DNA of 64,000 nt from Candidatus Heimdallarchaeum aukensis (GTDB lineage Archaea; Asgardarchaeota; Heimdallarchaeia; Heimdallarchaeales; Heimdallarchaeaceae), in the NCBI GenBank assembly GCA_021513695.1, contig CP084166.1, positions 416,001 to 480,000 of the forward strand, given 5' to 3'. Made by a program: the position numbers and the translations under genes. Of the stretch, positions 251 to 34,883 are shown in pieces. Under the pieces are notes generated by a model that was not told the DNA's origin, made no database searches, and saw nothing but the letters and a program-made list of their open reading frames with translations. The first letter of the stretch is position 1. Every line of letters starts with the position of its first letter.

Positions 251-2464
251 TTACGATTTATCTTTTTGTTCTTTCTTTGCAGATTTTTTATTGTTTTTTG
301 GAGATATATCATATTTTCTTAAAGTTTGGGAATTGATAGCGACGATTACTGTACTCAAAGACATCAAAATTGCGCCTATAGCAGGGTTTATTATTACACC
401 TACACTTGCTAGAACTCCTGCAGCTAAAGGAATAGCGATTATATTATATCCTGCTGCCCACCATAAATTTTGAATCATTTTCTTGTATGTTTGCTTCGAT
501 AATTCAATTAATCTGATAACATCATTTGGGTTATTTCTTACAAGGATAATATCTGCGCTTTCTATTGCAACATCAGTTCCTGCCCCTACTGCAATTCCTA
601 CATCAGCAGTAACTAATGCAGGAGCATCATTAATTCCGTCTCCGACCATAGCGACTTTGTATCCTTCCTCTTTTAATTTTGTAATTTTATCAGCTTTCTC
701 ATGTGGAAGAACTTCTGCAAAATAGTCATCCATTTCTAATTCTTTTGCTACCCATTTTGCTACTTCTTCTGCATCGCCTGTAAGCATGTATGTTCTTATT
801 CCTAAAGATTTTAACTTCTCAATAGCAATTCTTGAATCTTCTCTTATTTTATCTGCTAGAGCAAATGCGCCAGCAAGTTTGTCATCAATTATTGTAAAGA
901 TTACAGTTTTTCCTTGTTGTTGCACTTGTTTTATCTTCTCATCTTCTATTTCTATTTTCAACTCGTCAAGTAAGTTTGGGCTACCAACATAGACTGTTTT
1001 TCCATTTATTTTACCTTTTACACCTTTACCTGGCATTACAGTAAAATCAATAGTTGAAGGGATCTTTATTTTCTTCTCTTTTGCATAATCTACTATAGCT
1101 TTTGCAATTATATGCTCAGAGTTAATCTCTAACGCTGCAGTTAACTCCAATAACTCTTCTTCAGGAATGTACGAGATAACATCAGTTACTCCAAAGTTTC
1201 CTTCAGTCAAAGTTCCTGTTTTATCAAAAACTATAGCATCTATGTTTCGAACGTTTTCAAATCCAGTTCTGTCTCTTATAAGTACTCCACTTTTAGCAGT
1301 AATAGAAGTAGATAAAGCAACAACTAGAGGAATAGCTAAACCTAACGCATGGGGGCAAGCAATAACTAATACTGTTACAGCTCTCTCTAAAGCGAAATCA
1401 GGAAAACCAAGAAGGAACCATGTAGTATAAGTTATGATTCCTGCGATAAGTGCTACATAAAATAATAATGCTGCTGCACGATTAGCTAAATCTTGTGTTC
1501 TTGATTTACTCATTTGTGCTTTTCTTACTAAGTCTATTACTTGAGCAAGATAATTTTCTTCACCAGTTTTAGTTATTTTTACATGTAAAATTCCTTCTGA
1601 ATTTATAGATCCACCAATAACCATGTCATCCACAGTTTTGGATACAGGCATTGATTCTCCAGTCAAAAAAGCTTCATTTACATATGAAGAACCGTCTATA
1701 ACTACACCATCTGAAGGAATTTTTTCTCCAGGTCTAACAAGTGTAACATCATTGATTTTAAGCTCGGAAACGGAGACATCAATGATTTCTCCATCCTTGA
1801 TTAAGTGAGCAGTAGTAGGCATAATCTTTACTAATTCCTCTAATGCTCTCGAAGCTCCCATAATACTTTTTGCTTCCACCCAGTGACCTAGTAGCATAAC
1901 ATCGATCAATGTAGCAAGCTCCCAAAAGAAATCTACTCCTTCAATGAAAAACACAGTAGCAGCCGAATAAAAGAAAGCTACAGATATTGCCATTGCAATA
2001 AGTGTCATCATACCAGGAAGTTTTTTCTTGATTTCGTTAAATAAGCCTTTTAGAAATGGCCAACCACCATAAAAATAGATAAGTGATGAGATTGCAAGAA
2101 CTAATTCTCTTTGAAAATTAAAGGTAATCTCAAAGTTTAACCATAGCTGAATTGTTTCAGATAGAAGTAAAACTGGAATGGTTAAAATTAAAGAGACAAA
2201 AAATCTTTTCTTGAAGTCAGAAATGTGAGCAGAATGGTCATGAGATTTGTGGTCCTGATGATCTCCATGTTTCATTTTAGTTCCTGTAGATCCATGATCT
2301 TTGTGTTCTTGATGATTTTGATGCGTAGTATGTGCTTCTGCAGAAACATGACTTTTATGATCCTTATGATCTTTATGTTTCATATGAGATTCTGAAGAAT
2401 CATGTTTTTTGTGATTTTGGTTATCATGATCTTGATTTTTATTTCCTTTGTTCATTTTTTTCAC
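251..2464 (-). CDS. copB: P1B-type heavy-metal (copper) translocating ATPase, CopB-like, with a His-rich N-terminal metal-binding region
   Basis: 737 aa. The N-terminus is full of H-x-H/HKDH repeats. There is a transmembrane CPH motif (IACPHALGLAIP), a DKTGTLT phosphorylation site and a GDGINDAPAL hinge. The CPH motif plus His-rich N-terminus is the P1B-3 (CopB) signature. Confidence 0.9.
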   Translation of the reverse strand: MKKMNKGNKNQDHDNQNHKKHDSSESHMKHKDHKDHKSHVSAEAHTTHQNHQEHKDHGSTGTKMKHGDHQDHKSHDHSAHISDFKKRFFVSLILTIPVLLLSETIQLWLNFEITFNFQRELVLAISSLIYFYGGWPFLKGLFNEIKKKLPGMMTLIAMAISVAFFYSAATVFFIEGVDFFWELATLIDVMLLGHWVEAKSIMGASRALEELVKIMPTTAHLIKDGEIIDVSVSELKINDVTLVRPGEKIPSDGVVIDGSSYVNEAFLTGESMPVSKTVDDMVIGGSINSEGILHVKITKTGEENYLAQVIDLVRKAQMSKSRTQDLANRAAALLFYVALIAGIITYTTWFLLGFPDFALERAVTVLVIACPHALGLAIPLVVALSTSITAKSGVLIRDRTGFENVRNIDAIVFDKTGTLTEGNFGVTDVISYIPEEELLELTAALEINSEHIIAKAIVDYAKEKKIKIPSTIDFTVMPGKGVKGKINGKTVYVGSPNLLDELKIEIEDEKIKQVQQQGKTVIFTIIDDKLAGAFALADKIREDSRIAIEKLKSLGIRTYMLTGDAEEVAKWVAKELEMDDYFAEVLPHEKADKITKLKEEGYKVAMVGDGINDAPALVTADVGIAVGAGTDVAIESADIILVRNNPNDVIRLIELSKQTYKKMIQNLWWAAGYNIIAIPLAAGVLASVGVIINPAIGAILMSLSTVIVAINSQTLRKYDISPKNNKKSAKKEQKDKS

Positions 2465-2655: not shown

Positions 2656-5600
2656 TTAGTTCATGCTTTCTTTTAGATAAACCCAAGTATAACCCATTTG
2701 TTTTTGGACTATTTCTTCTGGTTTTCCTTCTGAGATTATGTACCCTCCTAGCTCTCCTCCTTCTAGACCTAAATCTATAACATAGTCTGCCTGTTTAATT
2801 AAATTCATTTCGTGATCAATTAGAACCACACTGTGTCCTTTATTTGCTAATCTATGAAGAATTTCAATAAGTTTTTCTAAATCAAAAAAGTGTAATCCTT
2901 GAGAAGGTTCATCTAGGATGTAAATACTATTTCCATAGGTTCTTTTAGATAGTTCTCTTACAATCTTTAATCTTTCAGCTTCTCCACCACTTATTGTTGT
3001 TGTTGGTTGTCCCATTTTCAAATAACCTAAACCTGCTTCAACAGCTAATTTTAATGGAGCACTTATTTTTTCTAGATCCCTAAATAACTCATATGCTTCT
3101 TCAATAGTCATCTCAAGAATATCAGAGATAGATTTTTGTTTGTACTTTACAGCTAGAACTTTTTTGTTATACCTTTTCCCCTTACAAATAGGACAAGTTA
3201 ACCATACATCAGATAAGAAAAGTAATTCTACCTTCTTTTGCCCTAATCCTTTACATTCTGGGCATTGTCCTTTTTTTACATTAAAACTAAAATGAGCAGA
3301 GCTCATTCCTCTGTTTCTTGATTCAGGTAGTTCAGCATAAAACTTTCTTATCTCGTCAAAAACTCCAAGATAAGTTGCTGGAGTTGAACGAACAGATTTA
3401 CTCATTGCAGATTGATCTACAGCAATAACTTTTTTGATATCTTCAAAACCTTTAATTTCTTTATGTTTTCCTGCTTCTATCTTCTTTTTAGAAATTTTTT
3501 TCTCTAAAGCTTTTTGTAAAGTATCTATAACCAAAGAAGATTTACCCGCACCTGATACTCCAGAAACAGCAGTAATAATTCCCTTTCCAAACTTTGCTGT
3601 AATATTTTTAAGATTATTTTCTTGTGCTCCTACTAAAGTTATATTTTCTGAAGTTTTTCTTCTTTTAGTAGGCGTTTTTATTTTTCTCTTGCCATAAATA
3701 TAGCTACCAGTAAGAGAAGATTCGCTTTTAAGAACCTCATTGGTTGAACCAAAGTTAATTATTTCTCCTCCTTCTTCTCCTCCCCTTGGTCCTAACTCAA
3801 TTATATAATCAGACTCTTTAATTATTGTATCGTCATGTTCTACTACTATTACGTGATTGCCATTTTCTTTTAATTTCTTCATGGTGTCTAATAGCCTGTT
3901 AATGTCTCTTGGATGTAAACCAATAGTGGGTTCGTCTAAGCAATAAGTTACCCCTATTAATCCACTTCCTATTTGAGAAGCTAAGCGTATTCTTTGTGCT
4001 TCTCCATTGGATAATGTACTTGCTCTTCGATCAAGAGTTAAATATTCTAACCCTACATCTACTAAATATTGAGCTCTTTTCTTTAATTCGGAAAGGATTC
4101 GCTCTGCTATTTTCGACCTTCTTTTATCTAATATTATATTATTCAGAAATACAAGAAAGTCTTTAACTGAATATTTTGTCAAATCTGTAATTGATTTGTT
4201 ATTAATTGTAATAGCTAAAACTTCTGGTTTAAGTTTTTCTCCCTTACAGTCGGGGCAAAGATACTCTGAATAATATTGGTTCATTTTTTCTTTATATTTA
4301 AGTGACCAAGTCGAATCTGTTTCAGATTTCATCCAATCATCCCAACGAGGAATTAATCCTTCCCAAGGTTTTTCTCTAATATACTCTGATACAGATTTAC
4401 GACTTTCTTGACGATAAACTATTTCTACTATTTCGCCATCTGAACCATAAAATAAAGCATGTAGTTGTTGAGGAGTAAAATCTTTTAGAGGAGTAGAGAG
4501 AGTGAAACCAAAGTGTTTTCCTACTGATTCTAACATACTTCGTCTCCAAGAGTTAGGATTACTCATTCTTTGTGCAGTATAAGGACCAATTGCTCCTTCA
4601 ATTATTGATTTATTCCAATCTGTAACTATCTTTCTAATATCAAATTTTCTGATCATTCCCAATCCTGTACAAGTTGGGCAAGCTCCTGAATAGTGATTAA
4701 AACTAAATAACCTTGGGTGAATCTCTTCTGGGACTTCAATTCCATGCTCTAAACATTCAGCATTGAATGAATACCTTTTTCCTTTTTTATCTGTAGAATA
4801 GACTTCTATTCTCCCTTTTCCAAGTTCTCTAGCTATTTCTAATGAATCAACAAATCTCGTATCTTCAACTTTTGATAAATCTATTCTATCAATCACAACT
4901 GAAAGTGTTTTAACATTATCAACACTAAACTCTTCATCTAAATGTAATAGTTTCTCATTTAGTAAAATCCTTGTATATCCTTCTTTCTTTAGTTCTTTTA
5001 CAATTTTAGATATATCTACTTGCTCTCCATTTAATACTGAAGCAGCAAGGTATATTTTCTTATCTTTGAACTCTTTTCTAATCAATTTTGCTATTTCTGT
5101 TTCTGTCCTTTGTTTTAATTCAATAGAACATTTAGGACAATGAGGAATACCTACTTTTGCAAAAAGAAGACGAAGATAATCATAAATTTCAGTAGTTGTG
5201 GCAACAGTGGAACGAGGATTATGTGAAATTGAATGTTGATCTATTGCAATTGAAGGAGTTAAGCCTACTATTTCTTCTACTTCTGTCCTTTCTGCCCGAT
5301 TTAGAAACTGTCTAGCATAACTGCTCAAACTTTCAATAAATCTTCTTTGCCCTTCAGCAAATAGTGTATCAATAACTAAACTACTTTTTCCACTACCAGA
5401 AACTCCAGTAACAACAACAAGATTATTTTTTGGAATAGTAAGATCAAGATTTTTTAGATTGTTCTTTTTTGCTCCTTTTACATAAAGAAAACTGCTTGGA
5501 TCTAATTCTTTATCTGATGTGGAAATAGAATTTTTACTTACTGTTTGCTCTTTTTCTAATTCTCTCTTTTCTCCTTCTAAAACCTTTTTTAGAGCTTGAC

Positions 5601-8445
5601 CTGTATATGACTCTTTAATTTTCACAATTTCTTCGGGAGTACCAAAACCAACTAAATATCCTCCCTTTTCTTCTCCTCCTTCAGGACCTAAATCAATGAT
5701 ATAATCTGCAGTCTTAATTACATCTAACTGATGCTCTATTACAAGAACGGTGTTTCCTTTATCTACTAATTCTTGTAAAACTTTGATTAGTTTCTTGATA
5801 TCTTCAAAACTTAAACCTGTAGTTGGTTCATCTAAGATATACAGAGTCTTACCAGTAGCTCTTTTAGCTAATTCTCTACTCAATTTTATTCTTTGCGCTT
5901 CTCCTCCAGAGAGAGTAGTAGAAGACTGACCTAATTTTATATAGTCTAAACCTACAGCTTCAAGAGTTTTGAGTATTCTAACAATTTTAGGTTGGTTCTC
6001 AAAAACATTTAATGCTTCACTTACAGTCAAGTTAAGTATATCTGCGATAGAATATCCTTTGTATTTAACTTTAAGTGTTTCATCATCATATCTGTTTCCT
6101 TTACAAATTTCACACTCTACCTCAACATCAGGTAAAAGAGACATCTCTATAGTGTTAAAACCTTTTCCTTGACAAGCTTCACATCTACCAGGGCTGTTAT
6201 TAAAACTAAATCTAGTTTTTGTATATCCTCTCAGTTTAGCAGTAGGAAGAGAAGCAAATAAGTCTCTAATAGGGTCAAGCATCTTTGTGTAAGTTGCAGG
6301 ATTTGAACGAGTAGTTCTACCTATAGGTGATTGGTCAATAACAACTACTTTATCGATATTCTCGACTCCTTTCAAAGTCTTGAATTTTCCTGCTTTCTGT
6401 TTTCCATGATGTAACTTATTTACTAAAGCGGGATAAAGGGTATCAGAAACTAAACTACTTTTACCGCTTCCAGAAACTCCAGTTACGCAAACAAATGTTC
6501 CTAAAGGTATCTTTACATCTATATTCTTTAGGTTATTGTGCTGAGCTCCTTTTAATTCAAGAAAAATATTGCTCTTTCTTCTCTTTTTAGGAACTGAAAT
6601 TGAGTCAAGGTTTAGTAAATATCTAGCTGTAAAAGAGCGTTTAGCGTCTTTTTCACTTATATCTCTAGGGTTTTTAGCAAAAAGTAATTCTCCGCCTAAA
6701 CTACCTGCTCGAGGTCCTAAATCTATTAAAACATCTGCACTCTGTAAAGTGTCTTCGTCATGTTCAACAACAATAACTGTATTCCCACCATCACGTAGAG
6801 TCTTTAAAGAAGAAAGAAGCTTTTCATTATCTCTATTTGCTAAACCTATGCTAGGTTCATCTAGAACATAATTAACTCCTTGAAGTTTAGCTCCTATTTG
6901 TGTTGCTAATCTAGTTCTTTGAGCTTCTCCGCCACTTAAATCAACAGCACTTCTATCTAAAGTGAGATAATGAAGACCCACCTCGATTAAAAAATATAAT
7001 CTGCTTATGATTTCCCTAAGAAGGGGTTTTGCTATCTTTTCTTCCTCTGGAGATAACTTTAAACTGTTAAAGAAATTGTAACATTCTTCTATAGACATTT
7101 GATTAAGTTCAGCAATATTTTTTCCATGGAAAAGTACAGATAGACTTTCATTCTTTAACCTTAGCCCTTTACAATCAGGACAAGTTTGAAGTTCCATATA
7201 TTGTTCTAAACGTTCTTTCATGCTTTTAGAAGAAGTTCTGTAATAACCCTCCATTGTTGCAGGAATAAAACCTTTCCATTTTACATCTGAAGTTCCCCGG
7301 GCTTTCCAGACACTATCTCTTGCTCCCCATTTCCAATTAATGGTATACTCTTTACTTCCAGTACCGTACATCAAGATTTGTTTGTGTTCTTCAGGCAAGT
7401 CCTTCCAAGGAATAGAAATATCAATACCTAACTGTTTAGCAATCTGTGCAATAGAATTTTTGCTCAATCCAGTATAAGTAAAGTGATCTCCACTTTTCGT
7501 CTGTAAAGCTATTGCATGTTCTAATAAAGGATTATCAGGATTAGTAACAAGTTTGTCGGGAACAATTTGAGGAAGCTTACCTAAACCTTTACATCTTGGA
7601 CAAGCTCCAACAGAAGAATTATAAGAAAAATCTCGAGGGTGAAATTCATTAACAGATAAACCACATTGAGGACAAACAAGCTTATTAGAAAAAATCTTTT
7701 TTTCCTTTTCTCCAATAATCTTTACTTTCCCATCAGCGAGATCTAAGCAAAGATCTACACTATCACGGATACTAGCTTCATTTTTCCTCAAACATTTATT
7801 TCTATCTACAACTATTTCAATATCATGGGCGACATATCTTTCCAATTTTGGAAACTTTTCATCCAGATTAATCTCTTCTCCATCAATGATTAAACGAGTA
7901 AAACCTTCTTCTTTCCATTTTGCTAGTTCTTTCCTGTACTCACCTTTTCTTTTTTTAAACATTGGTGCAACAATCTTGACTTTTTGTCCTTCAAAAGAAG
8001 CGAATATTTGATCTATTATCTGATCAGAAGGTTGTGCATCTATTTTAATATTACATATTGGACAATGAGGAACACCTACTCTAGCAAAAAGAACACGCAA
8101 GTAATCATATATTTCTGTTAAAGTTCCAACAGTACTTCGGGGATTCCTAGAAATGGTTTTCTGGTCAATAGAAATGGTAGGTCTTAAACCTTCAATATGT
8201 TCAACATCTGGACGATCAAAGTTGCCAATAAATTGTCTAGCATAAGCAGATAGAGTTTCCATATATCTTCTCTGAGCTTCTGAAAAAATAGTATTGAAAG
8301 CTAGTGAACTCTTCCCACTACCTGAAACGCCAGAAATTACCACTAGTTTATCATGTGGAATAGAAATAGTTATGTCTTTCAAGTTATTTTCTTTAGCTCT
8401 AATAATTTTAATACTGTCAGTACTAGAAGTCATATGATTATTCAC
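2656..8445 (-). CDS. uvrA: Tandem-duplicated (single-chain dimer) UvrA excinuclease ATPase, 1929 aa with four ABC nucleotide-binding modules
   Basis: Four Walker A sites (GVSGSGKSSL three times, GVSGAGKSSL once), each preceded by an N-L-K-N/D-I/L motif. Four ABC signature motifs (LSGGEAQR three times, LSNGEAQR once). The UvrA-type SxxARQF motif occurs twice (SAYARQF, SSYARQF). CxxC zinc modules recur. Each half is about 950 aa, the size of a full class I UvrA. Confidence 0.85.
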   Translation of the reverse strand: MNNHMTSSTDSIKIIRAKENNLKDITISIPHDKLVVISGVSGSGKSSLAFNTIFSEAQRRYMETLSAYARQFIGNFDRPDVEHIEGLRPTISIDQKTISRNPRSTVGTLTEIYDYLRVLFARVGVPHCPICNIKIDAQPSDQIIDQIFASFEGQKVKIVAPMFKKRKGEYRKELAKWKEEGFTRLIIDGEEINLDEKFPKLERYVAHDIEIVVDRNKCLRKNEASIRDSVDLCLDLADGKVKIIGEKEKKIFSNKLVCPQCGLSVNEFHPRDFSYNSSVGACPRCKGLGKLPQIVPDKLVTNPDNPLLEHAIALQTKSGDHFTYTGLSKNSIAQIAKQLGIDISIPWKDLPEEHKQILMYGTGSKEYTINWKWGARDSVWKARGTSDVKWKGFIPATMEGYYRTSSKSMKERLEQYMELQTCPDCKGLRLKNESLSVLFHGKNIAELNQMSIEECYNFFNSLKLSPEEEKIAKPLLREIISRLYFLIEVGLHYLTLDRSAVDLSGGEAQRTRLATQIGAKLQGVNYVLDEPSIGLANRDNEKLLSSLKTLRDGGNTVIVVEHDEDTLQSADVLIDLGPRAGSLGGELLFAKNPRDISEKDAKRSFTARYLLNLDSISVPKKRRKSNIFLELKGAQHNNLKNIDVKIPLGTFVCVTGVSGSGKSSLVSDTLYPALVNKLHHGKQKAGKFKTLKGVENIDKVVVIDQSPIGRTTRSNPATYTKMLDPIRDLFASLPTAKLRGYTKTRFSFNNSPGRCEACQGKGFNTIEMSLLPDVEVECEICKGNRYDDETLKVKYKGYSIADILNLTVSEALNVFENQPKIVRILKTLEAVGLDYIKLGQSSTTLSGGEAQRIKLSRELAKRATGKTLYILDEPTTGLSFEDIKKLIKVLQELVDKGNTVLVIEHQLDVIKTADYIIDLGPEGGEEKGGYLVGFGTPEEIVKIKESYTGQALKKVLEGEKRELEKEQTVSKNSISTSDKELDPSSFLYVKGAKKNNLKNLDLTIPKNNLVVVTGVSGSGKSSLVIDTLFAEGQRRFIESLSSYARQFLNRAERTEVEEIVGLTPSIAIDQHSISHNPRSTVATTTEIYDYLRLLFAKVGIPHCPKCSIELKQRTETEIAKLIRKEFKDKKIYLAASVLNGEQVDISKIVKELKKEGYTRILLNEKLLHLDEEFSVDNVKTLSVVIDRIDLSKVEDTRFVDSLEIARELGKGRIEVYSTDKKGKRYSFNAECLEHGIEVPEEIHPRLFSFNHYSGACPTCTGLGMIRKFDIRKIVTDWNKSIIEGAIGPYTAQRMSNPNSWRRSMLESVGKHFGFTLSTPLKDFTPQQLHALFYGSDGEIVEIVYRQESRKSVSEYIREKPWEGLIPRWDDWMKSETDSTWSLKYKEKMNQYYSEYLCPDCKGEKLKPEVLAITINNKSITDLTKYSVKDFLVFLNNIILDKRRSKIAERILSELKKRAQYLVDVGLEYLTLDRRASTLSNGEAQRIRLASQIGSGLIGVTYCLDEPTIGLHPRDINRLLDTMKKLKENGNHVIVVEHDDTIIKESDYIIELGPRGGEEGGEIINFGSTNEVLKSESSLTGSYIYGKRKIKTPTKRRKTSENITLVGAQENNLKNITAKFGKGIITAVSGVSGAGKSSLVIDTLQKALEKKISKKKIEAGKHKEIKGFEDIKKVIAVDQSAMSKSVRSTPATYLGVFDEIRKFYAELPESRNRGMSSAHFSFNVKKGQCPECKGLGQKKVELLFLSDVWLTCPICKGKRYNKKVLAVKYKQKSISDILEMTIEEAYELFRDLEKISAPLKLAVEAGLGYLKMGQPTTTISGGEAERLKIVRELSKRTYGNSIYILDEPSQGLHFFDLEKLIEILHRLANKGHSVVLIDHEMNLIKQADYVIDLGLEGGELGGYIISEGKPEEIVQKQMGYTWVYLKESMN

Positions 8446-10229: not shown

Positions 10230-10706
10230 ATGAATGAAATTTCAAAAGCTCTCGAAATAGAGATGAAGTCAGTTTTTAAAATGTTAAAAAACGCAGTAAG
10301 CAGAATCGAAGGAGATTATTGGAAAAAAAAGGAAAATAACTGGATGTACGGATATGTTTTATTTCATACGATAGAAGCAATTGATTACTATCTCTCTGAA
10401 TCAGCAGAAGAGTGGAAACCTCTAAATGATGTTTCTAACTATTCAGAAGAAAAAGAAACAGAAGCATTAAAAACAAAAGATAAGCATTTCTTTGAAGAAT
10501 ATTTAAGAAAAATAGAAGAAAAAACCTTTGAAACTCTTGAAAAACTTTCTGATGAAAAATTATTAGAAAAAGACGGGTTTGGAAAAAAAGGATTTACTTC
10601 AAGATTGCACAAATATATTTACTTGATAAGACATTGTATGGTGCATTTAGGAGAATTATCTAAAACTTTGAGAGACAAAGGAGAAGAAAACATTAAGTGG
10701 GAATAA
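10230..10706 (+). CDS. Hypothetical protein, DinB/YfiT-like four-helix-bundle pattern
   Basis: 158 aa. Weak DinB_2-like H-x3-H region (RHCMVHLGEL). Otherwise uncharacterised. Confidence 0.3.
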   Translation: MNEISKALEIEMKSVFKMLKNAVSRIEGDYWKKKENNWMYGYVLFHTIEAIDYYLSESAEEWKPLNDVSNYSEEKETEALKTKDKHFFEEYLRKIEEKTFETLEKLSDEKLLEKDGFGKKGFTSRLHKYIYLIRHCMVHLGELSKTLRDKGEENIKWE

Positions 10707-12043: not shown

Positions 12044-12529
12044 TTGTTTTCCATGTCTTACCAAACTTTTGCTGAGAAGTGCGAACCTGCTGTTCCAAAG
12101 TATGTACATTACATTATTGCAGGTCTTGCATGGTTAGGAGTAGGAATAATGTTATCTAATTTTGCTATTCAATGGTTAATCGTTGCAGAGGTACCTCTTG
12201 TTTGGATTTATGGTTTAATTGGAACAATTGCTGGTTTTATCATCTACTACTTTGGTTTTTCGCATATTGCCAAAAAGAATGTTAAAAGAATAGTTGAAAA
12301 AAGGCATAAATTCTGTGTTTTTGCTTTTATTTCTTGGAAATCATACTTGACAATACTTGTTATGGTTGCAATGGGGATAGGATTGAGATTGTCTCCTATA
12401 CCTAAACACTATCTAGCCGTCTTATACATTGGTTTAGGAATAGGTTTAGGTCTGTCTAGTTTTGTTTATTTTGGAAAAACTATTCTTCATTTCAGAAATA
12501 ACCAACCAGATCAAATAACAAACAATTAG
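12044..12529 (+). CDS. Hypothetical integral membrane protein
   Basis: 161 aa with four hydrophobic helices. The 3' end overlaps the convergent methyltransferase by 4 nt. Confidence 0.35.
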   Translation: MFSMSYQTFAEKCEPAVPKYVHYIIAGLAWLGVGIMLSNFAIQWLIVAEVPLVWIYGLIGTIAGFIIYYFGFSHIAKKNVKRIVEKRHKFCVFAFISWKSYLTILVMVAMGIGLRLSPIPKHYLAVLYIGLGIGLGLSSFVYFGKTILHFRNNQPDQITNN

Positions 12530-13422
12530 TTTTTTTCTCTTTTATCATTAGTTCTTTCTGAATATGGGGTATAGAATTCTCCCAATTTAATCTTGCTCAG
12601 GTTCCACTCTATTATTTCTTGCAATTGTTTGTTTATTTCGTATCCTATATAATGTCTATAAGCTCCTTTACACACCACTGCTGTTGTACCGTTTCCCATA
12701 AAAGGGTCTAGAATTATATCTCCAGGTTTGCTTCCAAAATCTATACATCTTAAAACAACATCTGTTGGAAGTTTTGTTGCATTCTTTTTTATTCCCGTGT
12801 GATATACTCTTTTTATATTCCAAACATCTTCTGGGTAGTGTTCAATTTTATTAAAAAAATAGTTTCTTTTGTTTTTTACAGCAAAAAGAATATGATAATG
12901 ACTTGTAACAAATTTTCTTTTTGTAAAAACTCCAAATTGATATTTCCAAATTATGTGATTAATTAACTCCAAATTGTTTTTTTCCAGAGCAAATAGTATA
13001 TCTTTTAAATTTGTCCACCCACTGAAAATCCACACTCCTCCACTTTTTTTTAATATTCTCGGCAGTTCACTTATCCATCTATTTGTAAATTCAGAGTAAT
13101 TACTAATTTCTACCTCTTTGTAACCCTCAATTACATTATTTTTGTCTCTATTGTATATACCTTCTTTTCCGTTAAAATTTATTCCAAAGGGAGGATCAGC
13201 AACAACCATGTCAATGCTATTATCAGGAAGTTTTCGCATACCTTCAATGCAATCTTCATAATGGATAATATCAATATCAAAATTACATTTAGAACTCTCA
13301 TAAAGAGCTCTAGCTTCTGAAATAGTCCAATCATAAGTGGGTTTAAACTTTTTAGAGCTTTTTTTAGTGCTATGCTTATTTTTTCCTTTTTTGGTTGTTT
13401 GAGATTCCATAGATTTCTTCAT
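12526..13422 (-). CDS. Beta-class DNA methyltransferase (N6-adenine or N4-cytosine), apparently orphan
   Basis: 298 aa. Motif IV DPPF (MVVADPPFG) precedes motif I (ILDPFMGNGTT). This order is diagnostic of beta-class amino-MTases (PF01555-like). The N-terminus has a Lys-rich tail. No restriction-enzyme-like neighbour. Confidence 0.85.
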   Translation of the reverse strand: MKKSMESQTTKKGKNKHSTKKSSKKFKPTYDWTISEARALYESSKCNFDIDIIHYEDCIEGMRKLPDNSIDMVVADPPFGINFNGKEGIYNRDKNNVIEGYKEVEISNYSEFTNRWISELPRILKKSGGVWIFSGWTNLKDILFALEKNNLELINHIIWKYQFGVFTKRKFVTSHYHILFAVKNKRNYFFNKIEHYPEDVWNIKRVYHTGIKKNATKLPTDVVLRCIDFGSKPGDIILDPFMGNGTTAVVCKGAYRHYIGYEINKQLQEIIEWNLSKIKLGEFYTPYSERTNDKREKN

Positions 13423-14191: not shown

Positions 14192-15262
14192 TTGGTGAAA
14201 AAAATGTTCACAAAAACAAAAATTATTGGTTTGGGAATACTTCTTTCAATGCTGGTAAGCTCTTTAGCTATATCAGCTGAAAGTCAAGGGTTGCAATATT
14301 CAGAACAAAATAAGCTCGTAACAATAAGCTATGAGGATCTTACACTCATGGTTAATGCTGGAGGTCAAGTACCTAAGTTTCATATCATTCAGGATGGTGG
14401 AATAGAGTTCCAAGTAATGTTCAAGCTTCTAGCCGAATATTATGACGAAAACGGAGATGGAGCTTTTCAATATGATGAACTAAATATAGCCCAAACGGGA
14501 CAGACAGGTCCTCCTACTGCTAGAACTAACATTTTAGCTCTACCAAGTGTCATCTGGTCATTCAGCGGTTTTGAAGCAGAATACGAAGAAGGAACAGAAA
14601 ATATTGTAGCTATACACTTCAGTTTTGTCAGTGATCAAATACTTATTCCATTTTACGCTGATTTTTCTATGGAAATAAAGGCCCATTTCTATCTAGATAA
14701 CAAGACCATTGATGGATATGAGATCATTGGCGGAAGAGAACTCAAATTTGATATAATCATGAACAATTGGCCATGGGAAAGAGATGATACTTACCTTGCT
14801 TTAAGATTTGACATTTCCCCTCAAAATGATGTTGCAGAAGTAAAAGATGCTGAAGGAAAACCTATTGACACAAAAACTAACTCTACAGGTGCTGAACACA
14901 AAGTCAATAATCAAAATAAAATGAAAAATTCTTTTGAGTTAGGGAATGCTACAGATAAAGGATTCTTTGCTTACTCTAATACGGCCAACTATTCCTATCA
15001 AAATGAATACCAACAAGGAACAGTAAATTGCTCTTATGCTACAAACGGAGATAACACAATTCAAACTTATTTAAGTTTCGAGCATTTCGATGAAGAAGTT
15101 GTTTATGATCCTTCACTAGGAATCGTTTCTGATACTGAAGAAGATACAGAAGGAGATACTGACGAAGATACAAGTGGTCTAGGAAATATTGAAATATTGA
15201 CAATCAGCGTATTTTCGATATCAGCCATTACTGCTGTAGCTATCATAAGAAAGAAGAAATAA
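14192..15262 (+). CDS. Secreted/surface protein with N-terminal signal peptide and C-terminal TM anchor
   Basis: 356 aa. Signal-like N-terminus (ILLSMLVSSLAISAES). Acidic Thr/Asp/Glu stalk, then a C-terminal hydrophobic helix ending in RKKK. Confidence 0.5.
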   Translation: MVKKMFTKTKIIGLGILLSMLVSSLAISAESQGLQYSEQNKLVTISYEDLTLMVNAGGQVPKFHIIQDGGIEFQVMFKLLAEYYDENGDGAFQYDELNIAQTGQTGPPTARTNILALPSVIWSFSGFEAEYEEGTENIVAIHFSFVSDQILIPFYADFSMEIKAHFYLDNKTIDGYEIIGGRELKFDIIMNNWPWERDDTYLALRFDISPQNDVAEVKDAEGKPIDTKTNSTGAEHKVNNQNKMKNSFELGNATDKGFFAYSNTANYSYQNEYQQGTVNCSYATNGDNTIQTYLSFEHFDEEVVYDPSLGIVSDTEEDTEGDTDEDTSGLGNIEILTISVFSISAITAVAIIRKKK

Positions 15263-15394: not shown

Positions 15395-17251
15395 TTAATA
15401 TTTCTTTCCACAGATATCAATTTCTTCAAAAGTTTCCTTAACTTTATTTTTCTTTTGTTTTGTTCTGAAGATAATTTCAAATAAAACAATTGAAAAAATG
15501 AAAATCATCCAAACTATACTTTTACTGATAATTTCTTTTCTTCTAGTAATACCTATGTTTGAATTAGGATCTAATGGGTCAAAATCATTCATTACTTCTT
15601 CATAATCAGTATATGAATCTCCATCTGTATCAGGATCGTTGGGATCAGTATTATAAAATTTTACTTCTTCAAAATCGTCCAATCCATCAAAGTCACTATC
15701 TATGCGTAAAGGATTAGTATGGTAAATAAATAATTCTTCATAATCATCTAGTAAGTCACCATCTGTATCACGATTTAGGGGACTAGTATTGTAATTATTT
15801 ACTTCTTCTCCGTCTTTTAATCCATCATTATCAGAATCACTATCATTGGGGTCAGTATCGTACATGTAAATTTCAAGATTATCAGACAAACCATCCAAAT
15901 CTGAATCTTTTAATGTAGGATTTGTTCCATAAACAAATACTTCTACTCCATCATCTATTCCATCATTATCTGAATCATCATTTGTAGGATCTGTTCCATA
16001 AGCGTATATTTCATCACCATCTAATAATCCATCAAAGTCAGTATCATTATTCCTTGGATCAGTATTGTTTTCAAATTCGTGAATATTATATAATTCATCA
16101 TTATCAAAGTCAACATAGGCATCAATTGGATTAGCAACATCTAAACCATAGTAATATTCCCAGTAATTTGTCATTCCATCGCTGTCTAAATCTCCATCAG
16201 CATCGCTTGGATCATCAGGATCTAATCCTACACTAACTTCCCAGTAATCAGGCATTTTATCGTTATCACTATCTCTTACTAGTTTTATGATAAAAGCATC
16301 AATATATCCTTCCAAAGTGGAATTTAAAGGGCTTTTTAAAAGAAGATCATTACTCTCTGTACTCCCTACTATGTAGATAGAACCATCACTATCCACTGCT
16401 ATATCTCTACCTACATCTTCTTCTCTTCCACCAAAATATGTGCTAAAAACTAAATTTGTTCCACTTCTGTTTAACATAGAAACAAAAATATCGGAATAAT
16501 AAGTAGGATTTCTTTCTTCAATTGCATTTTTAATCGGAAAATCATTGCTCCATGTTCCACCTGTTAAATAGACGTTTTGATCATTATCTACCGTTATTGA
16601 CAAACAAGTATCATTTGATGAACCACCTAAAAATGTACTATAGATTATATTATCAGCTGTTGAACTTATTTTTGTTAAAAATATGTTAGAATATCCATTT
16701 AGTGTGTCATCAAAGGCATTTTTTGTTGGAAAGTCAGTACTATTTGTAACACCAGTGATATATACATAACCTTCACTATCAATAGTTATTCCTCTGGCAT
16801 AATCATTATACTTTCCCCCTAAATAAGTGCTAAAGATTAACCCATTTCCTGTAGAGTTAATATAGGATAAATAAACATCAAAAAAGCTTCCACCACCATA
16901 AGTAGAATTAAAAGCATTTACAGTCGGAAAATCATCACTTCTTGTAGATCCAGTAATGAAAATAGAACCATTAGAGAAAACTTTACCTTTAGCAAAGTAT
17001 TCAGCATCACTTCCCCCTATTATTGTGGTGAAAATAGGTTCAAGAGTTTCTCCATCAAGTTTAGTAACAAAAGCATCATAATCATCATCTGAAATATTTC
17101 CAAAAGCAAAGTTGTTGAATAAAGAAGTGCTCATAGTATCTCCAAAAATGTATATATTTCCATCATTTCCTATTTCTATCTTGCGTCCATAATCAAAAAT
17201 ATCCCCGCTTAAATAAGAACTAAAATCTACTAAATAAGGATCAATAATCAA
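15395..17251 (-). CDS. Surface protein, C-terminal segment: SBBP-type beta-propeller repeats plus thrombospondin type-3-like Ca-binding repeats and a C-terminal TM anchor. It is in frame with 17336..18067, so the two are probably one gene.
   Basis: Recurring blocks of the form G-x-I/D-I-D-S-x-G-x-hydrophobic-Y-I-x-G-x-T-x-S-x-D-F-P (SBBP beta-propeller repeat). Multiple D-x-D-x-D-G-L-x-D-x-x-E units follow, then a hydrophobic helix and a basic tail. The annotated start is a TTG that simply continues the upstream reading frame. Confidence 0.6.
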   Translation of the reverse strand: MIIDPYLVDFSSYLSGDIFDYGRKIEIGNDGNIYIFGDTMSTSLFNNFAFGNISDDDYDAFVTKLDGETLEPIFTTIIGGSDAEYFAKGKVFSNGSIFITGSTRSDDFPTVNAFNSTYGGGSFFDVYLSYINSTGNGLIFSTYLGGKYNDYARGITIDSEGYVYITGVTNSTDFPTKNAFDDTLNGYSNIFLTKISSTADNIIYSTFLGGSSNDTCLSITVDNDQNVYLTGGTWSNDFPIKNAIEERNPTYYSDIFVSMLNRSGTNLVFSTYFGGREEDVGRDIAVDSDGSIYIVGSTESNDLLLKSPLNSTLEGYIDAFIIKLVRDSDNDKMPDYWEVSVGLDPDDPSDADGDLDSDGMTNYWEYYYGLDVANPIDAYVDFDNDELYNIHEFENNTDPRNNDTDFDGLLDGDEIYAYGTDPTNDDSDNDGIDDGVEVFVYGTNPTLKDSDLDGLSDNLEIYMYDTDPNDSDSDNDGLKDGEEVNNYNTSPLNRDTDGDLLDDYEELFIYHTNPLRIDSDFDGLDDFEEVKFYNTDPNDPDTDGDSYTDYEEVMNDFDPLDPNSNIGITRRKEIISKSIVWMIFIFSIVLFEIIFRTKQKKNKVKETFEEIDICGKKY

Positions 17252-18504: not shown

Positions 18505-19326
18505 ATGGACAATTCTAATGATTCAATCAAGGAAATGAAACTTTTTTCAAATCAAACAAGAAGGGATTTGTTAAAACTTCTTGGAGAATCAGGAGGATTG
18601 TCTTTTACTAACATTAAAGAAGAATTGAGACTTACAGATGGAAGATTATATTTCCATCTAAAGAAATTAGAAGGCTATATTGAGAAAGATACACAAAATA
18701 ATTACAAATTAACTTTAGATGGTAAGAAAATCTATGATTCTTTGTTTTTTAGTCATATTAAAGAACAGAAAAAATTTGAAGAAGATGTTTCATCGAAATC
18801 TCTTAACAAAATCTTTCCAGAAGACATTGTTTATTATTTAATTGGAACAAAAACGAGAAGTATGATAGAATTAAATATGTTATTGTTAATTTTATGTTGG
18901 TTTTTTGCAGTTACAGACAGTTACTTTAGTTCTATTGAAACAATAGTTTTGGGGGGAGCTATAGTCAATTTTGTCATTAACCTTATCCATTGGTATTTTT
19001 ACTGTTTACTCATTTATATAATATTAAAAATTGCAAAGAAAGGAATAGACTTTGTAGAATTAACTATTGTTACAATAATAGGAATTGCCCCATATTTCCT
19101 CTATTTACTAATAAAAGGGATTTTGCAATTATTGAATATAGAAATAATTGGTTTGATAAATATTGTTCTGGTAATTTTATTTGTTATTTGTAAGATATGG
19201 TCTTCACTAATAATAGCACAAGGATTAACAGTCGTCTCAAAGATCCATCCATCACAATCTTTACTAGCTGTAATTTCATTAACAATTATTGATTATTTGT
19301 ATTTGTTTATTACTTTATCAATGTAA
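18505..19326 (+). CDS. Membrane-tethered winged-helix transcription regulator (ArsR/PadR-like N-terminal wHTH plus C-terminal multi-TM domain)
   Basis: 273 aa. N-terminal TRRDLLKLLGESGGLSFTNIKEEL...GRLYFHLKKLEGYIEK is a wHTH. The C-terminal half has four to five hydrophobic helices. Confidence 0.5.
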   Translation: MDNSNDSIKEMKLFSNQTRRDLLKLLGESGGLSFTNIKEELRLTDGRLYFHLKKLEGYIEKDTQNNYKLTLDGKKIYDSLFFSHIKEQKKFEEDVSSKSLNKIFPEDIVYYLIGTKTRSMIELNMLLLILCWFFAVTDSYFSSIETIVLGGAIVNFVINLIHWYFYCLLIYIILKIAKKGIDFVELTIVTIIGIAPYFLYLLIKGILQLLNIEIIGLINIVLVILFVICKIWSSLIIAQGLTVVSKIHPSQSLLAVISLTIIDYLYLFITLSM

Positions 19327-20241: not shown

Positions 20242-21156
20242 ATGAAAATTGGTTTTTCTATTCCAATATCAGAAAATAATAAAAATCAGTTACATTATGT
20301 TAAAAATCTTAACGATTTAGGAATAGAACAATTTTGGATAGGAGATAATCCTCCTGTAAACAACGCTTTTCTCACTATTGAACATATTTTAAGTAGAATA
20401 GAAAAAATTACTTTAGGAACAGGAATTACTTCTCCCTTTTATTATTCTAAACAGACTTTAGTAGGCACAGTAGAGTATTTCATAAAAAATTATGGTAAAA
20501 GATTCATTTTGGGGTTGGGTTTTGGAAAAAAGAAGTCTTTTTTTGACAGTAATGAGAGATTAGATTTTAGAAAATTTCAATCTTACACTCATGAATTAGT
20601 AGAAACAGTTAGACACAGATTACAGAAAAACAATTTGCAAGATTCTTTTTCTTATGCTATAGGAGGTTTAGGTAATAGTATATCAAAATTTGCTATTCTC
20701 AATGCTGACATATTCTTGGTGAATAGTGCTTCTAAATATGATCTCAAGCGAATAAATAAGATATTCAACAGTTTTGATGATAAAAAGAAAAGCCAAGTGT
20801 TTCTTTATTGTATGATGGAAATAAGAGAGAAGAAAGAAAACATTTCTCTCAAATTATGGAATATAGTTAAAGACATAGCTCGCAACTCATCTCTAAATAT
20901 ATTGGAAGAGCATAACTACTCTCAAAGTATGATAGAAAAAATAAAGCAATTACCTCCAGAATACATGTTTAAAATTCCTGAAGGAGAAGTAGTTCATATA
21001 GTCAATGATTTTGCTTTGGTTGGTAAAATCGATGAATTAGCGGAAAAGGTTTCTAATTTAATGAAAACTTCTAAAATAATCGATGGCTTAATTTTTGGGT
21101 GGACCAACGAAATTTATGACTACAAAAAAATAGCTGATTTTCTAGAATTGCTTTGA
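20242..21156 (+). CDS. Luciferase-like monooxygenase (LLM) family flavin/F420-dependent oxidoreductase
   Basis: 304 aa. MKIGFSIP...GIEQFWIGDNPP matches the LLM TIM-barrel N-terminal consensus (MKFG...GFDSVWVSDH). Confidence 0.55.
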   Translation: MKIGFSIPISENNKNQLHYVKNLNDLGIEQFWIGDNPPVNNAFLTIEHILSRIEKITLGTGITSPFYYSKQTLVGTVEYFIKNYGKRFILGLGFGKKKSFFDSNERLDFRKFQSYTHELVETVRHRLQKNNLQDSFSYAIGGLGNSISKFAILNADIFLVNSASKYDLKRINKIFNSFDDKKKSQVFLYCMMEIREKKENISLKLWNIVKDIARNSSLNILEEHNYSQSMIEKIKQLPPEYMFKIPEGEVVHIVNDFALVGKIDELAEKVSNLMKTSKIIDGLIFGWTNEIYDYKKIADFLELL

Positions 21157-21211: not shown

Positions 21212-22174
21212 ATGAGCTCTTCAGATTTTGCTGTAGAAACCAATAGGTTAACAAAAGATTATGGATCATTAAGGGCAGTAAATGAAATTGATCTATCTAT
21301 TGAAAAATCAGAAATTTTTGGTTTGCTTGGTCCAAACGGTGCAGGAAAAACTACTACCATCAGGCTTCTTTCTGGAATGCTAACACCTACTTTTGGAAAA
21401 GCTAAAGTTTTAGGTATGGATTCTGTGGAAAAATCCCTCCAAATCAGAGAAAAAACAGGATTACTGACTGAAACCCCTTCGATTTATGACAGATTAACTG
21501 TTAGAGAAAACCTTACTTTCTTTGGTAGAATATATGGAGTTAAAACTGATTCCTTGAGAAAGAACATTGATAAATTGTTGGATATTTTTGATTTAGAGGA
21601 GAAAATAGATACAAAGGCAGGTACCTTATCAAAGGGTATGCGACAGAAAGTAGCAATAGCAAGAACACTTATTCATGATCCTGAACTCATATTTCTTGAT
21701 GAACCTACAGCTTCTCTTGCTCCTGAATCAGCTAAAGTTGTTAGAGATCTAATCCTTAATTTAGCAAAGGAGAGTAAAAAAACTTTCTTTATTGCAACAC
21801 ACAACCTCTATGAAGCTGAAATACTTTGTGATAGAGTAGCAATTATAAACAGAGGAAAAATTCTTGCAGTAGGAAAGCCTAAAGAACTCAAAGAAATGAT
21901 GAAGGGAGAAACATATACGATTATTAAATTCCAAGAATGGAACAAGGAAATAGAAAACTTTCTTGAAGCACATAATTACAAGATAAGTAATCTTGCCAAA
22001 GAAGAAAGAAAAATACACATAAAATTAAAGGACATTGAAAAAGAAACACCAGCTTTAATTAAAAAATTAATTGAGAATAATTACAACATTGTAGAAGTTT
22101 TCCACGAGAGACCTTCTTTAGAAAAGATCTATCTTGAACTAATAGAAAAAGAATCAAATGGAGGATTGAATTAG
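21212..22174 (+). CDS. ABC transporter ATP-binding protein
   Basis: Walker A GPNGAGKTTT, Q-loop, signature LSKGMRQKVAIA, Walker B LIFLDEPT and an H-loop. Confidence 0.9.
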   Translation: MSSSDFAVETNRLTKDYGSLRAVNEIDLSIEKSEIFGLLGPNGAGKTTTIRLLSGMLTPTFGKAKVLGMDSVEKSLQIREKTGLLTETPSIYDRLTVRENLTFFGRIYGVKTDSLRKNIDKLLDIFDLEEKIDTKAGTLSKGMRQKVAIARTLIHDPELIFLDEPTASLAPESAKVVRDLILNLAKESKKTFFIATHNLYEAEILCDRVAIINRGKILAVGKPKELKEMMKGETYTIIKFQEWNKEIENFLEAHNYKISNLAKEERKIHIKLKDIEKETPALIKKLIENNYNIVEVFHERPSLEKIYLELIEKESNGGLN

Positions 22175-22990
22175 ATGAGATGGGATAGAATTTGGGCTTT
22201 AGCTAAAAAAGATATTAAAGATTATACTAAATCTAAATATGTTTTCTTTACAATTATCTTCATGCCATTATTTCTTTCTCTTATAATGGCAATATCAGGT
22301 GTTTTACCACTAGTTAGTATTCCTGAAGATGAGGTCGATGAAGATGATTTTGCTTCTATCGATAATATTGTAGCAAATGTGGTAAAAGGCTGGAATGACT
22401 TTAATCCCAAACAGAAAATGCTAATTATTAGTGCTTATGGGATGCTATTCTTTGTTGCTCTCATACCAATAATTATACCGTCAATAATAGCTTCGGAAAC
22501 AATAGTAGGCGAAAAAGAAAGGAAAACAATGGAAGGATTAATTGCGTCTCCTCTCAGCGAAGGAGAGATAGTAGTAGGAAAAATAGTTTCTGCTTTTCTA
22601 CCCTCAATTATAGGAACAATTGTTGCTTCAATTGTTTATGCGGTAAGTGTTGATATTATGCTATATCGTGAGATAGGAAGACTTCTCTTTCCAGATCCTT
22701 TGATTATTTTATTTACATTCGTTATCAGCCCCATAACAACTATCCTTTGCGTAGAACTGATGATAATGATTTCAACAAAGATGTCAAGTGTAAGAGATGC
22801 CTATCAAATTGGTTCGCTTGTAGTTATGCCTGTGTTCTTCTTTGTTTTTCTTCAGATGGTGACCTTCTTCTTTTCAAGTTTATTATCAATACTAGCAGGA
22901 ACTACAATACTTATCCTATCTACAATTTTCTTCTACAAGCTTGCAGAGAATATTTTTGACAGAGAAAAAGCATTGGTAAAATTAGTTTGA
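22175..22990 (+). CDS. ABC-2 type transporter permease
   Basis: 271 aa with six predicted TM helices. It lies 0 nt after the ABC ATPase stop, so it is translationally coupled. Confidence 0.7.
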   Translation: MRWDRIWALAKKDIKDYTKSKYVFFTIIFMPLFLSLIMAISGVLPLVSIPEDEVDEDDFASIDNIVANVVKGWNDFNPKQKMLIISAYGMLFFVALIPIIIPSIIASETIVGEKERKTMEGLIASPLSEGEIVVGKIVSAFLPSIIGTIVASIVYAVSVDIMLYREIGRLLFPDPLIILFTFVISPITTILCVELMIMISTKMSSVRDAYQIGSLVVMPVFFFVFLQMVTFFFSSLLSILAGTTILILSTIFFYKLAENIFDREKALVKLV

Positions 22991-31693: not shown

Positions 31694-31706
31694 AACTAAT
31701 TAAAAA

Positions 31707-32765: not shown

Positions 32766-32804
32766 AAAGAAAAAAGCTAGAAGAAGAACAATGGGGACAA
32801 AAAA

Positions 32805-33068
32805 ATGGAGTCTTTAAAGAGATTATATTTTACAACAATAGTAGGAACAGAACATAAACAAATACCATTTGAAACACCAGGAAGTATAGTTTTCCACGAA
32901 TTAATTGTAGAAGTTTCAAAAAAGTTTGGAATAGCTACTGAACAAATTGCGATAAGCAGTGAAATGGGAGAAACTCTAACAGTTTCAGATTTTCAATCCA
33001 CTGTGGACGAAATAATAAGAAAGTATGGAACAGCTTTTCAAGTTATTAATCGAGGAGTAGTAGGATAA
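32805..33068 (+). CDS. Ubiquitin-like beta-grasp protein (Ub/SAMP-like modifier)
   Basis: 87 aa. Secondary-structure-like pattern collinear with ubiquitin (IAISSEMGETLTVSDF ~ QRLIFAGKQLEDGRTLSDY; TAFQVINRGVVG ~ STLHLVLRLRGG). The C-terminus is G-V-V-G, not a canonical GG. Confidence 0.6.
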   Translation: MESLKRLYFTTIVGTEHKQIPFETPGSIVFHELIVEVSKKFGIATEQIAISSEMGETLTVSDFQSTVDEIIRKYGTAFQVINRGVVG

Positions 33069-33079
33069 AGATTTTAGAG

Positions 33080-33661: not shown

Positions 33662-33836
33662 ATTATTTTTAAGCTATTTTTACTTTTTAAATTTAGAAGT
33701 TTATTTTTATTAAATGGTGTTTACTTGAAAAGCAGAAGCAGAAATAAGAAAGAAGTTATGAGACTAAATAAATCAATGTAAAAAAACTGTTAAATTTAAA
33801 CAAAAAATTTAACTATTTTATCGTTTATATAATTTT

Positions 33837-34874: not shown

Positions 34875-34883
34875 GGTGAAAAA

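Follow-up and report, generated by a model that had tools for sequence, protein, structure and literature searches.

Two classes of UvrA provide the background for the protein described here. For class I, each UvrB contacts the UvrB-binding domain of one UvrA protomer and signature domain II of the other, binding of a second UvrB loosens the UvrA dimer interface ahead of hand-off, and the choice between UvrA2B1 and UvrA2B2 stoichiometry is still debated (PMC11985968). Class II UvrAs are defined by the lack of the UvrB-binding domain (PMC5128194, PMC3167621) and act without UvrB (10.1101/2022.02.02.478902, PMC5128194); one of them, Ecm16, provides drug resistance without UvrB or UvrC (10.1101/2022.02.02.478902). 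A longer form is known from Chlamydia trachomatis, where ct333 (uvrA; 5,361 bp, 1,786 aa) coexists with uvrB (ct586) (PMC6686042). The present study concerns a fused, double-length uvrA in a 64,000-nucleotide stretch of the archaeon Candidatus Heimdallarchaeum aukensis (contig CP084166.1, positions 416,001 to 480,000), referred to below as the window. Heimdallarchaeia are the Asgard lineage closest to eukaryotes. We consider it fairly likely that the product of this gene is a single-chain UvrA pseudo-dimer that senses damage for bacterial-type UvrABC repair in Heimdallarchaeum.

Two class I units in one reading frame

The fused uvrA is one uninterrupted open reading frame (ORF) in the ORF listing of the window (Table 1). 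An alternative in-frame ATG start is present at codon 5 (8433-8431), and the GTG start is preceded, at a distance of 49 nt, by a TTTAAATA box. The usual class I arrangement, a single unit of ~940 aa acting as a homodimer, is replaced here by two non-identical units in one chain of 1929 aa. These units, termed the N unit and the C unit, are 42% identical over 947 aligned residues and are joined by a linker that counts 30 residues on the frame of Geobacillus UvrA (Bst).

Pattern searches of the translation located four Walker A motifs (starting at residues 39, 656, 1014 and 1629), four Walker B motifs of the form DEP[ST] (residues 526, 868, 1501 and 1841) and four H-loops. The four signatures are, in order, LSGGE and LSGGE in the N unit, and LSNGE (at 1478) and ISGGE (near 1818) in the C unit. 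All four sites keep the Walker A lysine, the Walker B Asp-Glu pair and the H-loop histidine. An earlier note on this DNA had described a single chain with four ABC modules, and four complete motif sets in one intact ORF agree with that description. The protein also contains 11 CxxC pairs and one CxxH (CLEHG). The latter is the second pair of zinc module 1 (Zn1) in the C unit, while Zn1 of the N unit consists of two CxxC pairs; a CxxH in Zn1 also occurs in canonical UvrAs, for example as CPTHG in Bst. Zn2 and Zn3 have CxxC pairs in both units, which gives the three zinc modules of class I UvrA.

Scanning the halves separately with Pfam returned the UvrB-interaction domain PF17760 (cut-off 23.3 bits) and the insertion, or DNA-binding, domain PF17755 (cut-off 23.2 bits) once in each, so that the UvrB-binding signature that the earlier note wished to see sought in both halves is found in both. 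The NCBIfam models NF001503 (2461 bits; cut-off 1147) and TIGR00630 (2353.7 bits; cut-off 729.8) each match along two full-length stretches of the fused protein. Hence, the claim that both halves are full-length and include zinc modules is borne out.

The earlier note had also raised an assembly artefact as the way in which its reading could fail, either a collapsed tandem duplication or a frameshift separating two normal uvrA genes. We reject an artefact of any such kind, including two adjacent uvrA genes misjoined or a chimeric duplication; it retains practically no probability, and no point in its favour was found. The frame runs unbroken across the unit junction. At the DNA level, repeats between the halves are restricted to patches of 25-170 nt with 60-88% identity, located at conserved motifs; therefore, there is no recent or collapsed repeat, and the low protein identity between the halves argues the same way. 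In a genome-collection scan with a UvrA query, the best match was the complete chromosome of Candidatus Heimdallarchaeum endolithica PR6 (locus L001), a genome circularised independently, in which a collinear 1929-aa ORF with 95.4% protein and 92.6% DNA identity lies beside a syntenic upstream gene. Dozens of orthologues of 1915-1985 aa occur across independent assemblies, and 193 fusions of two class I units (I-I fusions) have similar linker lengths.

Relative to the PR6 orthologue, the whole ORF has a dN/dS of 0.073 (N unit, 0.065; C unit, 0.087), with every subdomain below 0.17: the UvrB-binding domain gives 0.053 in the N unit and 0.163 in the C unit, and the C-unit insertion domain gives 0.013. 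Thus, both units are maintained by selection. The GC content of the gene (0.31-0.34) falls inside the window range of 0.26-0.36, and the gene is therefore not a recent import. We conclude that the fused uvrA is a genuine, expressed-looking gene.

Synonymous divergence from PR6 (window 2656-8445 versus L001 10001-15790) is strongly uneven along uvrA. Third-position identity is 64% in codons 1-225, 98.7% in codons 1426-1650 and 85% at the 3' end, and dS is higher in the N unit (0.47) than in the C unit (0.19). The pattern looks like a recombination mosaic between Heimdallarchaeum lineages.

Comparison with solved structures separates the two classes. The class I structure 2R6F (G. stearothermophilus) is matched end to end by the N unit (1044 bits) and by the C unit (871 bits), and the C unit also matches 9GXK end to end (911 bits). 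The class II structures score lower, 2VF7 with 625 (N) and 528 bits (C) and 7SH1 with 437 (N) and 435 bits (C), and their matches are split around the UvrB-binding region. Each unit has two ABC nucleotide-binding domains (NBDs), a UvrB-binding domain within NBD-I and an insertion domain, as in class I, and the domain that class II lacks is present twice. Judged from its sequence, the window protein is a class I-class I fusion UvrA. The earlier note had called it class III-like and had pointed to UvrB-independent paralogues and drug resistance; given that PF17760 is present in both units and that class I is matched far better than class II, this link is unsupported. No definition of a "class III" UvrA was found in the literature searched.

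Asymmetry of the units and the proposed pseudo-dimer

Conservation was assessed at the positions invariant in a canonical UvrA set, with the residue numbering of Bst. The N unit retains 75-100% of these positions in every domain, the lower figure being that of its UvrB-binding domain. For the C unit, the figure falls to 56% within the UvrB-binding domain, 67% within signature domain II and 74% within the C-terminal portion of ATP-binding domain II. Fusions from the Planctomycetes-Verrucomicrobia-Chlamydiae (PVC) group show the same asymmetry, the N unit being conserved and the C unit divergent.

Fused UvrAs of Heimdallarchaea form two groups, clade A (1915-1929 aa, including the window protein) and clade B (1946-1985 aa). 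The C units of clade A have four conserved motif changes: GVSGAGKS in Walker A-2, (L/I)IDH in H-loop-2 (LIDHE in the window protein), LSNGE in signature-I and ISGGEAER in signature-II. In ABC proteins generally, a composite site is made up of the Walker A from one NBD and the signature from its partner. Because of this pairing, the GVSGAGKS, (L/I)IDH and LSNGE changes would all map to a single composite site, namely the distal one in the C unit. The C unit is specialised yet still constrained.

The losses in the UvrB-binding domains are, at the residue level, complementary between the units. Arg216, invariant in 9/9 canonical UvrAs, is Ser in the window N unit (Ser, Ile or Leu in clade A N units) and Arg in 7/7 C units; its importance rests on this invariance and not on a cited contact. 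Clade A N units still have P153, K159, G160 and H198, which the C units lack, and D205/R206 are retained in the C-unit domain of the window protein. From this material we infer a functional asymmetry between the two units.

The clade B proteins (P0111, P0036, P0047, P0035, P0051 and P0020; loci L012, L022, L023, L035 and L036) have their own peculiarities. Their N units carry EEPT instead of DEPT in Walker B-2, VSEHD in H-loop-1 and a lysine-rich insertion of 23-32 residues in the UvrB-binding domain, and their R216 pattern is opposite to that of clade A, with Arg in the N units and Gln in the C units.

In the arrangement that we propose, the two units would pack like the protomers of an ordinary UvrA2 dimer, giving four ATP sites and two UvrB-binding domains, and the flexible linker of ~30 residues would span from the C-terminus of one protomer to the N-terminus of the other. 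Over the 193 I-I fusions, linker length on the Bst frame has a median of 25 and a 10th-90th percentile range of 20-32; such tight lengths fit a tether across a fixed distance between termini, and an intramolecular pseudo-dimer is proposed for this reason. The pseudo-dimer would sense DNA damage and then load UvrB. We infer both the packing within one chain and the partnership with UvrB and UvrC, and "effectively a covalent UvrA dimer", as the earlier note put it, is the most reasonable reading of the protein.

Alternatively, the units could pair between chains, as a dimer of fused chains (the equivalent of a UvrA tetramer, with eight ATP sites) or by domain swapping; the fusion would then alter oligomeric state or cooperativity and not substitute for dimerisation. 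The present data fit pairing within and between chains alike, a full set of conserved core positions is present in both units, and higher-order packing has been seen in crystal lattices of MtUvrA, where its authors dismissed it as non-physiological (PMC3167621). Nevertheless, a fixed one-to-one pairing of N with C accounts better for the tight linker lengths and for an N/C asymmetry that recurs among independent fusions, since N-N and C-C pairs would not relax symmetric constraints in this way. We therefore hold inter-chain pairing to be unlikely.

If the pseudo-dimer does form within one chain, fusion would have let the units specialise, the N unit staying near canonical and the C unit diverging in its UvrB-binding and signature-II domains, with its distal ATP site remodelled. 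Given that a UvrB contacts both protomers, each UvrB site in the fused protein would pair one conserved with one diverged element. The protomers, moreover, could not fully separate. A stronger version, which we put forward only tentatively and with about one chance in four in mind, is that of a natural pseudo-heterodimer with labour divided between its halves: the distal C-unit ATP site would be retuned, the UvrB-docking surfaces would be non-equivalent, and hand-off would proceed without protomer separation.

Several observations weigh against a damage sensor working with UvrB. In the window, no ORF of at least 580 aa has a UvrB or UvrC domain, in line with the remark of the earlier note that neither gene is adjacent, and both genes are likewise missing from the 10-kb flanks of the fused uvrA at the ten archaeal loci inspected. 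The literature searched holds no report of uvr genes in Asgard archaea, and no biochemical characterisation of any fused UvrA appears to exist in the searchable literature. Finally, some of the residues that are invariant in canonical UvrAs are missing from each UvrB-binding domain. Neither the paper on the Heimdallarchaeum genomes nor any of its 25 supplements mentions uvr genes.

The missing uvrB and uvrC nearby and the residues lost from the UvrB-binding domains could also be explained by a UvrB-independent paralogue, one that clears or protects DNA from intercalators or adducts outside UvrABC repair in the manner of DrrC, Ecm16 and UvrA2. A DrrA-like ABC ATPase with an ABC-2 permease, 13 kb from uvrA, speaks for the same role, as orthologues of this pair (43-53% identity) are situated ~4-9 kb from the fused uvrA in two clade A relatives (L013 19216-21029 and L024 23149-24944). 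However, the pair is on the other strand with many genes between, and it is part of a general regional synteny: genes 14192-15262, 18505-19326 and 20242-21156 are likewise shared, in rearranged order, with L013 and L024. A DrrAB-like transporter linkage was rejected for this rearranged synteny and the lack of an operon. No biosynthetic cluster is visible. Furthermore, both units keep under purifying selection a domain that class II does not have (PMC5128194, PMC3167621), and the matches to 2VF7 and 7SH1 are not only much weaker but skip this very region. A UvrB-independent role thus seems very improbable to us, and we retain the single-chain sensor of UvrABC repair.

Distribution, ancestry and genomic neighbourhood

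The N unit was searched against 1.84 billion cluster representatives, and the best 150 matches were classified unit by unit against Geobacillus UvrA. All of these 150 clusters are multi-unit UvrAs: 76 are I-I, 33 II-II, 9 I-II and 2 II-I fusions, and the remainder are truncated sequences. Named I-I examples come from Chlamydiota, Planctomycetota, Armatimonadota, Chloroflexota, Poribacteria and Heimdallarchaeota. The rarity implied by the earlier note does not hold, as I-I fusions are widespread; the architecture is already known, common and routinely annotated, and is not a new kind of system. No paper analysing a fused or "class III" UvrA was found in the literature searched. The I-II and II-I fusions have one UvrB-binding domain per chain and are in this respect natural "A2B1-like" designs.

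Ancestry was examined by neighbour-joining (NJ) with 100 bootstrap replicates on 867 columns, using class I units and nine canonical UvrAs. A first alignment and tree had included a mis-extracted "canonical" sequence from Flavobacteriaceae (L002) that distorted the average identity with canonical UvrA; the later analyses leave this sequence out. The four archaeal unit groups (N and C units of clades A and B) are each monophyletic in 100/100 replicates. The N units of the two clades group together in 52-58 and their C units in 48-63 of 100 replicates, and a separate duplication within either archaeal clade, with 0/100, was rejected. From these groupings, the fusion probably predates the split of the two Heimdallarchaeal clades.

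A common origin of archaeal and bacterial fusions is unsupported by the sequences. The archaeal C units and the PVC C units group with 0 bootstrap support, and a single origin of all fused UvrAs, with all N units on one side and all C units on the other, obtained 0-2% and was rejected. Monophyly of all archaeal units, equivalent to an independent archaeal duplication, is found in the best NJ tree with a bootstrap of just 5-6%. The GPSGSGK and DEPT derived states common to clade A and bacterial C units argue the opposite way, for a shared origin. Identities over core columns agree with the bootstraps, as the window C unit shares 45% with PVC C units, 52.5% with those of clade B and 48-51% with canonical UvrA, the last in the set that contained L002. 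Indel characters are uninformative, being few, ambiguous and located in the variable insertion domain. As to the bacterial donor envisaged by the earlier note, Firmicutes UvrAs come nearest to the N unit among canonical sequences (50-52% identity), but no donor was identified, and the deep nodes have no resolution in the NJ bootstraps.

The archaeal context noted earlier agrees with PR6 as the closest genome and with an Asgard "eukaryotic signature" cluster (ThiF, JAB and Vps36-like genes) in the window at 30830-35531 (+). The best matches of the window are proteins of Heimdallarchaeaceae and Heimdallarchaeota. A metagenome scan returned just a 1.5 kb fragment of a close relative.

One neighbour calls for a further alternative, in which the fused UvrA and an orphan N6/N4 methyltransferase would share a methylation-linked function, for example a defence resembling MADS (methylation-associated defence system) or modification-aware repair. 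The methyltransferase 4 kb upstream of uvrA in the window is 56-58% identical to an orphan-looking enzyme of ~240 aa that divergently adjoins the fused uvrA in 5/5 clade B loci, and the PADLOC models mad3 (519 bits) and mad8 match the fused UvrA. However, mad3 scores E. coli UvrA at 342 and Priestia UvrA at 393 bits, as compared with 288 and 244 bits for the two halves. The mad3 match is therefore generic UvrA homology; with no mad model among the six neighbours, and with the methyltransferase matching just generic type II or orphan methyltransferase models in PADLOC, membership in MADS was rejected. Moreover, the window methyltransferase has the opposite orientation to its clade B counterparts and is separated from uvrA by five small ORFs, it is not in the uvrA flanks of PR6 (L001), L013, L024 and L033, and the clade B loci are so broadly syntenic that the adjacency amounts to approximately one observation. 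We give a methylation-linked function hardly any credence, less than a UvrB-independent role, and read the methyltransferase near uvrA as a remnant of an ancestral neighbourhood.

Of the other neighbours, a small DinB-family protein is encoded 1.8 kb upstream of uvrA; the DinB family has a link to the DNA-damage response in Bacillus. The P-type ATPase directly downstream has a long His-rich N-terminal tail, which suggests that it is a heavy-metal pump and that, in place of an HMA domain, it has an unusual His-rich extension for metal binding. Five large repeat proteins are probably surface proteins, and genes like these also flank the fused uvrA in L001, L024 and L033.

Two observations concern other loci. 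In L034 (3760-6701), which belongs to the deep-branching clade A protein P0019, a family X DNA polymerase (HHH_8, pol beta palm/thumb, PHP) and a RAMA-domain N6/N4 methyltransferase lie 3-6 kb upstream of the fused uvrA; this methyltransferase is only 30% identical to the window enzyme. L023 (P0035), labelled "Candidatus Bathyarchaeia archaeon" at NCBI, has gene-for-gene synteny with the Heimdallarchaeota loci L012, L035 and L036 (MgtE x2-3, TrkA/PhoU, Steroid_dh, methyltransferase, uvrA, NRDD, NTP_transf/HD), and its label is probably a binning or classification error.

Table 1. Features of the fused uvrA and of its surroundings (positions in the window unless a locus is named).
Feature	Position	Strand	Remarks
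Complete fused uvrA ORF	2656-8445	-	1929 codons; stop codon 2656-2658; GTG start 8445-8443
N unit, complete class I UvrA, near canonical	5581-8445	-	residues 1-955; 2R6F match over residues 8-965
Inter-unit linker	5488-5580	-	~residues 956-986, LEGEKRELEKEQTVSKNSISTSDKELDPSSF; charged, low-complexity, without UvrA homology
C unit, complete class I UvrA, more derived	2659-5487	-	residues 987-1929; end-to-end structure matches
Walker A, NBD-I of N unit, GVSGSGKS	8308-8331	-	residues 39-46; DNA repeat family D2
Walker A, NBD-II of N unit, GVSGSGKS	6457-6480	-	residues 656-663
Walker A, NBD-I of C unit, GVSGSGKS	5383-5406	-	residues 1014-1021
Walker A, NBD-II of C unit, GVSGAGKS	3538-3561	-	residues 1629-1636; derived state in all clade A C units
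Derived signature LSNGE, signature domain I of C unit	4000-4014	-	residues 1478-1482; invariant in 7/7 clade A members examined
UvrB-binding domain, N unit	7648-8070	-	~residues 126-266; PF17760 101.9 bits
UvrB-binding domain, C unit, divergent	4726-5145	-	~residues 1101-1240; PF17760 65.3 bits
Insertion (DNA-binding) domain, N unit	7186-7557	-	~residues 297-420; PF17755 70.7 bits
Insertion (DNA-binding) domain, C unit	4258-4635	-	~residues 1271-1396; PF17755 78.1 bits
P-type (E1-E2) ATPase	251-2464	-	His-rich N-terminal tail HKKHD..HMKHKDHKDHKSH..HQNHQEHKDH..
Small DinB-family protein	10230-10706	+	PF05163 28 bits, cut-off 23
N6/N4 DNA methyltransferase	12526-13422	-	DPPF motif; no visible restriction partner
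Clade B methyltransferases	L012 9007-9720, L022 8999-9709, L023 9000-9716, L035 8633-9364, L036 9021-9743		
DrrA-like ABC ATPase and ABC-2 permease	21212-22990	+	DrrA1-3_C domain
ThiF/E1-like	30830-31693	+	eukaryotic-signature cluster
JAB/MPN deubiquitinase-like	31707-32765	+	eukaryotic-signature cluster
EAP30/Vps36 ESCRT-II-like	33837-34874	+	eukaryotic-signature cluster
SPFH/Band 7 protein	34884-35531	+	follows Vps36-like gene
Second, unrelated N6/N4 DNA methyltransferase	37574-38716	-	380 aa
Five large repeat proteins	15395-17251, 23064-25118, 25303-27288, 45536-48505, 57796-62244		beta-helix/NosD, SBBP beta-propeller or FG-GAP and bacterial TSP3 repeats
Large ORF without any Pfam match	52552-54459	-	635 aa
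Large ORF without any Pfam match	56112-57629	+	505 aa

Significance and comparison with known systems

The significance of this locus is modest; its protein is a Heimdallarchaeal representative of a widespread architecture. The bacterial-type UvrA of Heimdallarchaeia is an old fusion maintained by vertical descent rather than a recent import, and the family of fused UvrAs is large, since clustering at 50% identity leaves at least 76 class I-I clusters. In a single chain, unlike in a homodimer, any one of the four ATP sites or either UvrB-binding domain can be mutated on its own. The fused protein thereby bears on the UvrA2B1 versus UvrA2B2 stoichiometry and on the need for dimer dissociation in hand-off (PMC11985968), and the recurrent N/C asymmetry could help biochemists working on nucleotide excision repair (NER). 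If the divided-labour reading were true, the archaeal lineage nearest eukaryotes would rely on a remodelled bacterial-type NER sensor that may have been fused independently, and a ready-made tool for the questions of stoichiometry and dimer dissociation would be at hand.

When set beside canonical class I UvrA (~940 aa; 2R6F/3UWX, T. maritima 3PIH, M. tuberculosis 3ZQJ and E. coli), each window unit has the full domain set: an NBD-I interrupted by the UvrB-binding and insertion domains, an NBD-II with the Zn3 hairpin, and all ATPase motifs. Unlike the canonical homodimer, the window "protomers" are fused and non-identical (42%), and the C unit has LSNGE, GVSGAGKS, LIDHE and a divergent UvrB-binding domain. 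The bacterial I-I fusions have the same two-unit layout, a similar linker and a C unit most divergent in the UvrB-binding domain. Named examples are CT333 of Chlamydia trachomatis (1786 aa), the protein of Parachlamydia UV-7 (1927 aa) and those of Planctomycetota (1933-2345 aa); the window protein is 42-46% identical to them overall and has an archaeal host. On the model for the long, Chlamydia-type UvrA (NF001885/PRK00635, 1809 positions) it scores 1389.2 bits, below the cut-off of 3054, as befits the same architecture in another lineage. With class II UvrA (D. radiodurans UvrA2 2VF7, Ecm16 7SH1, DrrC) the units share the UvrA-family ABC ATPase but differ by having the UvrB-binding domain; the fused II-II relatives of class II are ~1570-1740 aa long. 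Full-length ABC transporters offer a last comparison, as two once-identical halves are linked in them and one composite nucleotide site is consensus while the other is degenerate. The likeness is one of analogy and not of homology: a similar asymmetric divergence followed covalent linkage, but UvrA is soluble and DNA-binding, and the catalytic residues of the derived site are kept here, so that to call this site degenerate would go too far.

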